From an uncultured Pelagibacteraceae bacterium (GTDB lineage Bacteria > Pseudomonadota > Alphaproteobacteria > Pelagibacterales > Pelagibacteraceae): a stretch of DNA of 64,000 nucleotides. Shown here in pieces: positions 20,539 through 62,699 of this stretch (position 1 is the stretch's first letter; each line of letters begins with the position of its first letter). The translations under genes and the position numbers were made by a program. The notes below the pieces were generated by a model. The model had not been told where the DNA came from. It saw nothing but the letters and a program-made list of their open reading frames with translations, and searched no databases. The DNA lies in the NCBI GenBank assembly GCA_902624015.1, contig CACNVV010000002.1:25325-89324 (forward strand), given 5' to 3'.

Positions 20539-20646
20539 TACCTATTATTTTAGTACTGTTATCGTTTTAATAATAAAGAAAATAGAAATTGGTACTTATA
20601 AAATGAGAACAAACTAAGAAACTTATAGAGATATTTTTATTTGAAG

Positions 20647-21003
20647 TGCCAGATAAACTATAAGCCGGGTTCTGTCTTTTAAACTTATCATTTATCTAGG
20701 CTTAAGATCACTCTTAAGCTCAAGCAACTAACCCTGATGACTAGCCAAGGACGGCTTTTAGTTCTTAAACTATGTCATCTCTACTTAGTCTTGCTCCCAG
20801 TGGGGTTTTCCAGCGTTCATTGTTACCAATAGAACCGGTGTGCTCTTACCACACCTTTTCACCCTTGCCATGTTATGGCGGTTTATTTTCTGTGGCACTA
20901 TCCCTAGGGTTTCCCCCGCCAGGTATTACCTGGCACTGTGTCCTTGTAGAGCCCGGACTTTCCTCTTTAAATTAAATTAAAGCGATAAGTCATTTATCTG
21001 GCA
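20647..21003 (-). ncRNA. rnpB: RNase P RNA, bacterial class A
   Basis: Minus strand has GAGGAAAGTCCGGGC, AGTGCCACAGAAA, GGGTGAAAAGGTGTGGTAAGAGCAC and ACAGAACCCGGCTTA; terminal P1 pairing TGCCAGATAAA/TTTATCTGGCA. Confidence 0.97.
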
Positions 21004-23292: not shown

Positions 23293-23369
23293 TGGTGGGC
23301 CCGCCAGGACTCGAACCTGGGACCAATACATTATGAGTGTACTGCTCTAACCAACTGAGCTACAGGCCC
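23293..23369 (-). tRNA. tRNA with CAU anticodon, most likely tRNA-Ile2 (lysidine type)
   Basis: GGGCCTGTAGCTCAGTTGGTTAGAGC...CTCATAA...GGTTCGAGTCC...CGGGCCCACCA. Paired G1-C72 and no GGG/CCC anticodon stem exclude the initiator; acceptor stem is Ile-like. Confidence 0.85.
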
Positions 23370-23428: not shown

Positions 23429-23503
23429 TGGTGGGCCGTGTTGGTTACGCTCCAACTACCCCTGCAATGTCAATGCAGTACTCTACTATTGAGCTAACGG
23501 CCC
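23429..23503 (-). tRNA. tRNA-Val(GAC) with non-canonical T- and D-loops
   Basis: Full cloverleaf: GGGCCGT/ACGGCCC, GCTC/GAGT, CTGCA-TTGACAT-TGCAG, GTTGG-AGCGTAA-CCAAC, ending ACCA. Confidence 0.88.
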
Positions 23504-23507
23504 AGAA

Positions 23508-25331
23508 CTAACTTTCTAGAAAACTTTTTAGTTGTTTAGACCTACTGGGATGTTTTAATTTTCTTAAAGCCTTAGCTTCTATTTGTCTTATTCTTTCTCT
23601 GGTTACAGAAAACTGCAATCCTACCTCTTCAAGTGTATGGTCTGTATTCATTCCTACTCCAAATCTCATTCTTAAAACTCTTTCCTCTCTGGGAGTAAGA
23701 GTAGATAGTATTTTAGTAGTAGCCTCCCCAAGGTTTGATTTAATCGCTTGTTCTAGTGGTGCTAAAGCTTTTGTGTCCTCTATGAAATCTCCTAAACTAC
23801 TATCTTCTTCGTCACCAACTGGTTTTTCTAAAGATACTGGTTCCTTTGAAATTTTTAATACTTTTCTTACCTTGTCCAAAGGCATTCTGAGTTTTTGAGC
23901 TAATTCTTCAGGAGTTGCTTCTCTTCCAAACTCACTTAATATTAGTCTTTGGGTCCTAACAATTTTATTTATTGTCTCTATCATATGTACTGGTATACGA
24001 ATTGTTCTTGCTTGGTCTGCAATAGATCTAGTTATTGCCTGTCTTATCCACCATGTAGCATATGTTGAAAACTTATATCCTCTTCTGTACTCGAATTTAT
24101 CAACAGCTTTCATTAAACCAATGTTTCCTTCTTGGATTAAATCTAAAAATTGAAGACCTCTATTGGTATATTTTTTTGCTATAGAAATAACTAATCTTAA
24201 ATTTGCTTCGACCATCTCCTTTTTGGCTATTCTAGATTCTTTCTCACCTTTTTGAATTCGACTAACTAATTTTTTGAACTCCGTTACTGAAATTCCAAGT
24301 TTGTAGCTAATTTCTACTAATCTCTCTCTAATATTTTTAAACTCATTTTTATATTTAGAAAAAAATTGTTTCCAAACTACATTTGTATCTAAAAATTTTT
24401 TTAAATTTGGATTAATTTCATTACCTACATAAAATTTAATAAATTCATTTCTTTGAATTTTGTGATCTAATGCCAATCTTAAAAGATTACCCTCTAAAGA
24501 GATAATTTTTTTATTTTCAACATAATGTTTTTGAACTAATTCCTCTAAAACAGATGGAGATAATTGAAGTGATTTAATATTTTCTAAAATGTCACCAACT
24601 ATTTTCTCATATCCTTTCTCCTTGGATGTAGAAAAGCTTTGAGAATTTAGAACACACTCTAATCTATCTTTTTGGTATTTTATGAGTTTTGTATATTCTT
24701 TAGTAAGAGTATTTATGGTTTTTAAAACTTTTGGTTTAATTTCTGTTTCCATGGCTGCAAGAGTGGGATTAAAATCATCGTCTTCATCAGATGAACCTTC
24801 ATCTTTATCAGCATCACCAGAATTTTTCTGCTTTGCGCTAGGACCTGTTGTTTCATCTTCCATATAGTTTGTATCAATGTCAATTATTTCTCTGACTAAA
24901 ATTTCATCTTTTTGTAATTTTTCATTCCATTCAAAAAATTGTTGTGCAGTAATTGGACTTTGTGCAAGTGCAATTAACATTACATCTTTTCCAGCTTCTA
25001 TTCTTTTTGCAATTGCTATTTCACCTTCTCTAGATAAAAGTTCGACACCTCCCATCTCCCTTAAGTACATTCTTATAGGGTCATCACTTTTTTCAATTGT
25101 TTTACCTTCCTCTTTATTTGAATTTTCTTTTTTTCTAAGAATTTTAAAATCTGATTTTTTTTCTACTAAAGTTATTTTTTCATCTAAAATATGAATAAAA
25201 GCTTGAGCTAAATTTTCATCTGATAAATTTCTTTTTCCCAATGATTTATTTAATTCTTCATATGTAATAAATCCTCTATGAGTCCCACGGCCCATTAATC
25301 TTGCAAATGATTTTGTAATAATTCTTTCCAC
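23508..25331 (-). CDS. rpoD: Primary sigma factor RpoD
   Basis: [53 protein letters not shown]; GTG start. Confidence 0.98.
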
Positions 25332-61563: not shown

Positions 61564-61616
61564 GAATCCAAATTTTTCAATCTCAGGTTGACCGTAGAAT
61601 CCATTTGGAGTCTAAT
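61564..61616 (+). promoter_or_regulatory. Putative ccrM promoter (TTGACC-N17-TCTAAT) carrying three GANTC sites
   Basis: -35 at 61588-61593, weak -10 at 61611-61616; GAATC 61564, GAATC 61597, GAGTC 61608. Confidence 0.55.
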
Positions 61617-61628
61617 TAATTTTTACAA

Positions 61629-62699
61629 ATGAAAACTGATTTCAAAAATAAAATAATTAATGGAGATAGTCTCGAAGAATTAAAAAAAATTCCACGTGAA
61701 ACTTTTGATTTAATTTTTGCTGACCCTCCTTACAACTTACAATTAAAAAGTGAATTAACAAGACCGGATAGATCAAAGGTTAGTGCGGTAAATGATAAGT
61801 GGGATCAATTTGAAAACTTTAAAAAATATGATGATTTCACTTATGAATGGCTTAGTGAATGTAAAAGAATTTTAAAAAAAGATGGAGCTATTTGGGTTAT
61901 AGGAAGCTACCATAATATTTTTAGAGTTGGCACGGCAATACAAAATTTAGGTTTCTGGATTTTAAATGATGTTATTTGGAATAAAAATAATCCAATGCCA
62001 AACTTTAGAGGGACACGTTTTACTAATGCTCATGAAACTTTAATATGGGCTTCTAAAAGTGAGAAATCAAAATATACATTTAATTATCAATCTTTAAAAT
62101 GTTTAAATGATGATCTTCAAATGAGATCTAATTGGAATCTTCCAATATGCAATGGTTCTGAAAGACTTAAAAAGAATGGAAAAAAAATTCACTCAACACA
62201 AAAACCAGAAGCGCTATTACATAGAATTTTACTAGCTACATCTAATAAAAATGACCTCATACTTGATCCTTTTTTAGGATCAGGAACAACAGCTACAGTA
62301 GCAAAAAAACTAGGAAGAAATTATTTTGGAATAGAAAAAGAACAAAATTATTTTAAAGCTGCTGAGCAACGCATAAAAGAAACAAAACCTATTGAAGATG
62401 ATTTATTAGATACGCTAAAAAATAATAGATCGAAACCAAGAATTCCTTTTGGCTCATTAGTCGAGCTTGGAATAATTAAACCTGGAACTAATATTTTTGA
62501 TAATAAGAAAAAAATAACAGCCAGAATTATGGCTGATGGTAGTATAAAACATAATCAAGCAGAGGGTTCTATACACAAAGTTGCGGCTACTATTTTAGGA
62601 GCAGAAAGTTGCAACGGATGGACTTTTTGGCACTGTGATATAAATGGGCGAACTTATCCTATTGATTATCTAAGACAAAGATTAATTTCTAAAAGTTAA
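61629..62699 (+). CDS. ccrM: Cell-cycle regulated GANTC N6-adenine methyltransferase CcrM
   Basis: FADPPYNLQL, NPMPNFRG.RFTNAHET, HSTQKPE, DPFLGSGTT, C-terminal GSIH..CNGWTFW domain; rnhB-ccrM synteny. Confidence 0.96.
   Translation: MKTDFKNKIINGDSLEELKKIPRETFDLIFADPPYNLQLKSELTRPDRSKVSAVNDKWDQFENFKKYDDFTYEWLSECKRILKKDGAIWVIGSYHNIFRVGTAIQNLGFWILNDVIWNKNNPMPNFRGTRFTNAHETLIWASKSEKSKYTFNYQSLKCLNDDLQMRSNWNLPICNGSERLKKNGKKIHSTQKPEALLHRILLATSNKNDLILDPFLGSGTTATVAKKLGRNYFGIEKEQNYFKAAEQRIKETKPIEDDLLDTLKNNRSKPRIPFGSLVELGIIKPGTNIFDNKKKITARIMADGSIKHNQAEGSIHKVAATILGAESCNGWTFWHCDINGRTYPIDYLRQRLISKS

Follow-up and report, generated by a model that had tools for sequence, protein, structure and literature searches.

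The window analysed here is a 64,000-nucleotide stretch of contig CACNVV010000002.1, from an uncultured bacterium of the genus Candidatus Pelagibacter (SAR11; family Pelagibacteraceae), and our subject is a 75-nt tRNA-Val(GAC) gene with an unusual elbow that lies on its minus strand, directly behind the sigma-70 gene rpoD (Table 1). Read 5' to 3', the acceptor strand GGGCCGU is followed by UA, the D arm (GCUC, loop AAUAGUA, GAGU), a single A, the anticodon arm (CUGCA, loop UUGACAU, UGCAG), the variable loop GGGUA, the T arm (GUUGG, loop AGCGUAA, CCAAC), the second acceptor strand ACGGCCC, and finally A73 and an encoded CCA. All four stems are paired (acceptor 7/7, D 4/4 with G10-U25, anticodon 5/5 and T 5/5). 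ARAGORN calls tRNA-Val(GAC) with exactly the bounds 23429-23503 (-), the Rfam tRNA model RF00005 gives 53.6 bits (E = 1e-8; gathering score 29), and the minimum free energy fold is the cloverleaf, at -28.6 kcal/mol (z = -3.3), a value equalled by 0/200 shuffles.

Table 1. Features of the window discussed in the text
Feature	Position	Strand	Basis
tRNA-Val(GAC) gene, 75 nt, CCA encoded	23429..23503	minus	ARAGORN; Rfam RF00005; minimum free energy cloverleaf; stem covariation
D-loop AAUAGUA = A14 A15 U16 A18 (23487) G19 (23486) U20 A21	23484..23490	minus	sequence; alignment
Anticodon GAC in loop UUGACAU	23469..23471	minus	sequence; ARAGORN; loop identical in 18 distinct alleles
T-loop AGCGUAA = A54 G55 C56 G57 U58 A59 A60, closing pair G53-C61	23445..23451	minus	sequence; same in 242/274 genus genomes
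rpoD (sigma-70) open reading frame	23508..25331	minus	open reading frame list; C-terminal translation
CAU-anticodon tRNA, canonical elbow (ARAGORN 'Met')	23293..23369	minus	ARAGORN, Rfam; synteny
Class A bacterial RNase P RNA	20645-21001	minus	295 bits
bablM small RNA	61564-61632	plus	77.7 bits

The elbow itself departs from the canonical form at four near-invariant positions, with A18, A54, G55 and U58 in place of G18, U54, U55 and A58. The D-loop accordingly has a single G where GG is expected, G18 being replaced by A18 and G19 retained. Other canonical bases are kept: G19, C56, purine 57, G53 and C61 in the elbow, U33, the GAC anticodon and purine 37 in the anticodon loop, and A73-CCA at the 3' end, with UUGACAU and ACCA invariant across the alignment of alleles described below. 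The gene thus carries the full alternative set, A18 with G55, A54 with U58, and A60, with G19-C56 kept. The initial annotation of this DNA had recorded four paired stems, an encoded A73 and CCA, the T-loop AGCGUAA and a D-loop AAUAGUA without GG, and all of this is confirmed, the stems and 3' end by direct reading, ARAGORN, Rfam and the fold, and the loops on the sequence. It had also described the changes as coordinated; the swaps at 54:58 and 18:55 and the preserved G19-C56 stand, whereas A15 and A48 do not belong to the set. We rejected this pair as a component of the switch, since an allele with a canonical elbow (L177) carries both bases. The Rfam score of 53.6 bits compares with 61-73 for the window's two other tRNAs; the rewired elbow reduces the scores of tRNA models, so that annotation may miss weaker members of this class.

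The distribution of the elbow was examined in 401 genomes of the order, using the Val anticodon loop combined with the T-loop AGCGUAA as a pattern and the reversed pattern as a control. The pattern was present in 242 of the 274 genomes of Candidatus Pelagibacter (g1), in 1/8 genomes of genus g5 and in 1/3 of genus g7; it was absent from g6, g8 and g9 and from all 60 sister-family genomes, and the control matched nothing in any group. Nor was it found in 150 other alphaproteobacterial families, each represented by one genome. Among the matches listed for public genomes, the anticodon-loop and T-loop combination occurred only in Pelagibacteraceae or Candidatus Pelagibacter, including complete genomes and cultured strains such as HIMB1695, HIMB1748, nBUS_33 and nBUS_49. 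Across 20 genomes of the genus the D- and T-loops are constant, apart from one D-loop AAUAGAA; substitutions in the acceptor, anticodon and T stems are paired. T-loop variants preserve the core: AGCAUAA retains a purine at 57, and AGCGUUA indicates that position 59 is free.

For a covariation analysis, we aligned 18 distinct alleles, 12 rewired and 6 canonical. In this alignment 100% of the cells are paired in all four stems, two-sided changes occur in 12 stem pairs, and the covariation is 0.42 as against 0.11 in shuffles, with 0/500 shuffles as high. The elbow positions behave in the same way: 54:58 is A:U in the 12 rewired alleles and U:A in the 6 canonical ones, 18:55 is A:G in the former and G:U in the latter, and 19:56 is G:C in 18/18. 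These patterns indicate that the rewired elbow is held by purifying selection. They bear out the view, put forward in the initial annotation, of an alternative tertiary core maintained by selection rather than decaying: the elbow is fixed across most of the genus while the stems co-vary, the pairs 18/55 and 54/58 co-vary perfectly in the 18 alleles, and both recur independently in other tRNAs and in phages. We considered a tRNA pseudogene and rejected it. Sequencing error or strain-specific decay was likewise rejected, because the elbow is fixed in most of the genus, the stems co-vary and the canonical form is rare. The initial annotation had held that relatives with a canonical TTCG loop would speak for such decay or error; relatives of this kind do exist, but they are rare (7/401 genomes, plus G149) against 242/274 with the rewired form.

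These canonical alleles were found by searching the 401 genomes for alleles of the tRNA-Val gene without A54. The seven genomes concerned are all Pelagibacter, and together with the additional G149 the set comprises G149, G150, G392, G416, G515, G594, G666 and G663, each with a GG D-loop and a UUCGA T-loop. Where flanking sequence is available, the canonical alleles also lie after rpoD, with the CAU tRNA next in most; the short contig of G663 shows the tRNA alone. The G663 allele (L178) differs from that of the window at seven positions, 15, 18, 54, 55, 58, 59 and 60, all of them within 14 loop positions, with 0 differences in the other 61 (chance about 1.7e-6 under uniform placement). No intermediate alleles with a single swap were seen, as every allele without A54 in the 401 genomes had a UUCGA loop. 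In a tree of the rpoD segment the canonical alleles are scattered; seven of them need six changes, at least three of which are forced by supported branches, and the tree does not resolve a single origin. The scatter therefore suggests that the canonical and rewired forms have been exchanged or converted more than once, either by shuffling of alleles or by recurrence of the switch. Most likely, the switch arose inside the Pelagibacteraceae from a canonical allele of this same gene.

The cell's need for this tRNA can be judged from its tRNA set and codon usage. The complete genome G013 encodes 32 tRNAs, of which two are for valine, a canonical UAC species and the rewired GAC species, the sole GAC tRNA; in G042 (genus g5) no Val(GAC) other than the rewired tRNA was found. 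Of the valine codons in the window's genome, 53% are GUU, the most frequent, and 5% are GUC, together 58%. Part of the same elbow recurs in other tRNAs of these organisms. A18 together with U54-G55 (UGCGA) is seen in the single tRNA-Phe of each of three genomes, G013, G140 (g8) and that of the window; in the last it is a tRNA-Phe(GAA) at G000:C22:10117-10191 (L336:101-175, minus), whose D-loop is AGGAGUA (A18) and whose T-loop is UGCGAAU (G55), and no other Phe tRNA was found there. The pattern used to survey tRNA-Phe was loose and also matched coding sequence, and matches were counted only with tRNA-Phe variable-loop context; so counted, a tRNA-Phe with G55 occurs in 52/82 g1, 3/3 g8 and 1/1 g9 genomes and, in this sample, only in genera that lack truB. 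Like tRNA-Val, tRNA-Phe comes in two forms within the genus, the canonical one, with the same anticodon arm, being present in G093 and G150; G148 is an equally good match. A18 and G55 are also combined in Thr(GGU) of G013 (G013:C1:1131481-1131553, L061; T-loop UGCAAGU, D-loop AGGUAGUA) and in tRNA-His(GUG) of G041 (g5, L108; D-loop AGUUAGUUA, T-loop UGCAACU), the latter in a genome with truB. Since the sole tRNA-Phe, Thr(GGU) and His(GUG) carry it, the A18/G55 combination is compatible with translation. A different departure is found in Thr(GGU) of the window's genome (G000:C34:1185-1258, L337), which has the T-loop GUCAGUA (G54, G58) together with a variable loop of 4 nt and an ordinary GG D-loop. 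All remaining tRNAs in the sets examined have GG and UUCRA.

The complete elbow is found again in phages. On IMG/VR phage contigs, an A18 D-loop is combined with the T-loop AGCGUAA in His, Met, Val(GAC) and Val(UAC) tRNAs whose bodies are unrelated, and the same contigs carry Ile and Tyr tRNAs that have A54/U58 but a normal GG D-loop and U55. Because these Ile and Tyr tRNAs possess one swap and not the other, the 18/55 and 54/58 swaps are separable, and each co-varies. When the tRNA-Val(GAC) sequence was compared by blastn with 50,697 phage records, there was no match and no sign of a pelagiphage copy among them. One phage array of at least 17 tRNA genes (L302 = IMGVR_UViG_3300008120_000431; also L303 and L305) has the T-loops AGCGUAA in Val, AUCGUUA in Ile, and AUCGAAA and AUCGACA in Glu. 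This array also includes a CUA-anticodon tRNA, labelled 'Pyl' by ARAGORN, which is a possible amber suppressor.

The enzymes that act on the elbow have a restricted distribution in these genomes. TruB_N was found in 0/82 g1 genomes that were at least 95% complete, in 0/3 of g8 and in 0/1 of g9, whereas all 14 genomes examined from g5, g6, g7 and the sister family have it. A search of five truB-less genomes with TruB from G041 as the query gave no match. In G041 (L299, C1:80000-84000) the operon reads infB-rbfA-truB-rpsO-pnp, and in G013 (L301, C1:1214934-1218176) and G140 (L300) rbfA is followed directly by rpsO. truB is thus cleanly deleted in Pelagibacter and g8; the deletion is shown in G013 and G140, as the corresponding contig of the window's own assembly (C21) ends inside rbfA. 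In five complete or near-complete Pelagibacterales genomes, no TrmFO was found at cut-off and no member of the TrmA family was found. Weak matches to the TrmFO profile fall in frames of 620-640 amino acids, which we take to be the paralogue MnmG. The recognition site of TruB is G53-UUYRANYC-61, and alphaproteobacteria normally use TrmFO (PMC7912444). The rewired tRNA-Val(GAC) can carry neither T54 nor pseudouridine-55. The statement in the initial annotation that U54 and U55 are targets of TrmA/TrmFO and TruB needs updating, as this genus is without truB and neither TrmA nor TrmFO was found.

RNA matching the gene is present in marine metatranscriptomes. A 105-nt contig (depth 59) spans exactly 23429-23503 with no differences, stopping at G1 at one end and with adapter joined directly behind CCA at the other, although assembled contigs cannot prove RNA ends. 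A contig from a second study spans both this tRNA and the CAU tRNA and likewise stops at 23503. These contigs fit a processed, unedited tRNA. Metatranscriptome depth was left out of account where bins between the two tRNAs lacked cover.

At the locus, the order rpoD, tRNA-Val, CAU tRNA forms a conserved block, with 4 nt between the end of the rpoD open reading frame and the start of tRNA-Val(GAC). No promoter-like or terminator-like site was seen in this gap or nearby, and for this reason co-transcription of the tRNA with rpoD is likely. The arrangement is not universal. In G042 the rewired Val(GAC) (L093, 1486-1560 (-)) lies 2 nt past the stop codon of pntB and is convergent with the initiator tRNA, and in G009 and G017 the tRNA-Val and the 3' end of rpoD are on separate contigs. 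In 9/120 Pelagibacter loci (e.g. L261, L273) an insert of about 1.2-2.5 kb separates rpoD from tRNA-Val. A tRNA directly abutting the stop codon of a protein gene is a recurring layout here. The CAU tRNA has the acceptor stem GGGCCUG, which resembles GGGCCGG of tRNA-Ile(GAU), and the genome has two further CAU tRNAs; on the strength of both observations it is probably a lysidine-dependent tRNA-Ile2.

The element is almost certainly a real, conserved and working tRNA with a coordinated alternative elbow. We favour the explanation that it is a functional elongator tRNA-Val(GAC) of Candidatus Pelagibacter whose elbow is self-consistent, and give this a probability of roughly 0.85. The tRNA would be made from the rpoD transcript, freed by RNase P and 3' trimming, and would read GUC and GUU. 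In its elbow, residue 55 would be partnered by A18 rather than G18, giving A18-G55 instead of G18-pseudouridine-55, and A54-U58 would replace the T54-A58 reverse-Hoogsteen pair. A60, in place of a pyrimidine, would form part of the same arrangement, as the AGCGU-type loops found here have it alongside A54. The outer pair G19-C56 is the stacking platform for RNase P, the ribosomal L1 stalk and T-boxes, purine 57 intercalates, and EF-Tu reads the T stem. The parts contacted by these partners, namely G19-C56, purine 57, G53-C61 and the T stem, are retained.

Several points weigh against this explanation. The RNA evidence consists of assembled contigs, with unprovable ends, and RNA libraries may hold DNA. 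The link to truB is loose: G041, which has truB, carries the A18/G55 tRNA-His, the truB-positive genera g5 and g7 include genomes with the rewired tRNA-Val, and canonical Val and Phe tRNAs persist in some Pelagibacter without truB. The geometries of A18-G55 and A54-U58 are deduced from covariation only, and we infer valine charging and ribosomal decoding from the sole-GAC status of the tRNA and from the 58% share of GUY among valine codons. Moreover, G013 has a single U34 tRNA for each of the Ala and Pro boxes, so that Val(UAC) might read all four valine codons, leaving Val(GAC) less than essential.

This last point could be taken further, to an accessory or non-ribosomal tRNA that donates its aminoacyl group outside translation, as the staphylococcal non-proteinogenic tRNA-Gly does, or that escapes tRNA-cutting toxins, while Val(UAC) does the decoding. 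Altered D- and T-loops are typical of non-proteinogenic tRNAs (PMC4574755), and besides the Ala and Pro boxes of G013, the rewired Thr(GGU) also has a U34 partner. Yet the tRNA is the sole GAC isoacceptor, with no extra copy, in a genome where GUU is the commonest valine codon; its T stem, the contact for EF-Tu, is identical to that of the canonical allele; it keeps G19-C56, in contrast to U19 in the staphylococcal tRNAs (PMC4574755); and the sole tRNA-Phe uses the A18/G55 elbow as well. An accessory role is therefore very improbable. We consider it less probable still that the tRNA-like structure acts mainly as an RNase P processing signal that sets the 3' end of the rpoD mRNA. Its position 4 nt past the rpoD stop (2 nt after the pntB stop in G042), the lack of a promoter- or terminator-like site nearby and the RNA contigs that stop at the tRNA 5' end would suit such a signal, but the anticodon arm has an invariant loop and a co-varying stem, and A73-CCA is preserved. 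It also is not tied to rpoD, given the separate contigs in G009 and G017 and the pntB locus of G042, and this only GAC tRNA is matched by a canonical tRNA in the same place in sister genomes. The alternative raised in the initial annotation, a processing element of the rpoD mRNA, thus finds no support as a primary role in view of the other loci, the conserved anticodon arm and the sole-GAC status.

If the gene encodes a functional elongator tRNA, there is the separate question of how and why its elbow switched. One possibility is that a rewired gene entered by horizontal transfer, perhaps from a set of phage tRNAs, and took the place of the native Val(GAC). The elbow type does occur in phage tRNA arrays; its distribution is patchy in g5 (1/8) and g7, at loci that differ (after rpoD, or after pntB beside tRNA-fMet); the canonical Val(GAC) of g5 and g8 has no BLAST similarity to the rewired gene; and both allele types are scattered on the rpoD tree. 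However, conversion in place is suggested by the canonical alleles, which share the locus and all four stems; the 50,697 phage records gave no blastn match, the bodies of the phage tRNAs that share this elbow are unrelated, and the G042 copy has neither an integrase nor phage genes beside it. We therefore regard acquisition from outside as improbable. As to the cause, relaxed constraint after enzyme loss, better folding without pseudouridine-55 and escape from readers of U54-U55 are candidates; a simple reading in which the new elbow is a functional equivalent of the old ranks highest. One form of relaxed constraint, which bears on the cause and not on the identity of the tRNA, is a non-adaptive switch: after the loss of truB, and with enzymes for m5U54 also not found, U54 and U55 would have been freed of enzyme recognition, and compensatory substitutions would have carried the elbow by drift to a second neutral solution. 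In line with this, truB is deleted in g1, g8 and g9, TrmA and TrmFO were not found in the genomes tested, the G55 tRNA-Phe was seen in truB-less genera only (g1 52/82, g8 3/3, g9 1/1), and both alleles persist within the genus. It sits poorly with the recurrence of the same narrow set (A18, A54, G55, U58, A60) in unrelated phage tRNAs and in truB-positive genera, with the large majority held by the rewired allele and with the absence of single-swap intermediates in the 401 genomes. We hold neutral drift to be plausible but tentative, at somewhat less than even odds. Alternatively, Pelagibacter may have abandoned the T54/pseudouridine-55 system altogether, and the purine-rich elbow (A18-G55, A54-U58, A60) may be a self-sufficient design that folds without the chaperone action of TruB, is invisible to readers of U54-U55 such as modification enzymes or the T-loop-cutting toxins of phages and competitors, or both, with the dimorphism kept by such pressure. 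This idea is speculative and on balance unlikely; if true, it would explain the enrichment of the same solution in phage tRNAs.

In cytoplasmic tRNAs, G18, U54, U55 and A58 are regarded as nearly invariant, and here a core tRNA of a highly abundant bacterium replaces all four coordinately, while the sole tRNA-Phe replaces two of them. We found no published description of the rewired elbow in the open-access literature, and a paper on SAR11 tRNAs (PMC3937112) does not mention the T-loop. Among the closest known systems is the canonical bacterial elongator tRNA-Val(GAC) (Rfam RF00005), including the Pelagibacter alleles of G150, G416, G594 and G663. It has the same cloverleaf, UUGACAU loop, A73-CCA, G19-C56, G53-C61 and purine 57, with identical stems in G663 and a shared locus after rpoD, and differs in having G18, U54, U55, A58 and Y59-Y60 where the window allele has A18, A54, G55, U58 and A59-A60. 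Such a canonical allele, alike in stems and locus, is a natural near-isogenic control. Combined with truB loss and with strains that are already in culture, it offers a tractable system for the role of the elbow bases and their modifications, in which one could ask whether the alternative elbow alters how the tRNA is recognised, be it by RNase P, by the ribosome, by modification enzymes or by nucleases that target tRNAs. Replacement of the 54-58 pair is reportedly also tolerated in the T-loops of E. coli suppressor tRNAs selected in vivo by Zagryadskaya, Doyon and Steinberg in 2003, which were laboratory constructs and which we do not use as evidence.

Eukaryotic initiator tRNA-Met also has A60. 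With A54 opposite A58, it is the only exception at position 54 named in PMC7912444. It resembles the Pelagibacter tRNA in having A54 for U54 together with A60, and shows that a purine 54 can be accommodated in a working T-loop; it differs in that the partner is (m1)A58 rather than U58, and the Pelagibacter tRNA has G55 and A18 in addition and is a bacterial elongator. The staphylococcal non-proteinogenic tRNA-Gly species (PMC4574755) are likewise bacterial and without the D-loop GG and U55, but their U18/U19 or C18/U19 lose the G19-C56 pair, and they are extra isoacceptors with weak EF-Tu binding. The Pelagibacter tRNA does not fit this class, being the only GAC tRNA in G013 and having the T stem of the canonical allele. 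Nor does it fit tRNA-like mRNA elements, as its anticodon arm is conserved and co-varying and it is not tied to rpoD. The phage tRNAs with A18/G55 and A54/U58 share the combination of D-loop and T-loop, verified in the IMG/VR contigs. Unlike these, the Pelagibacter gene belongs to the core chromosomal tRNA set of a free-living genus that is in culture and dominant worldwide, and in which truB is deleted and a canonical allele is still segregating.
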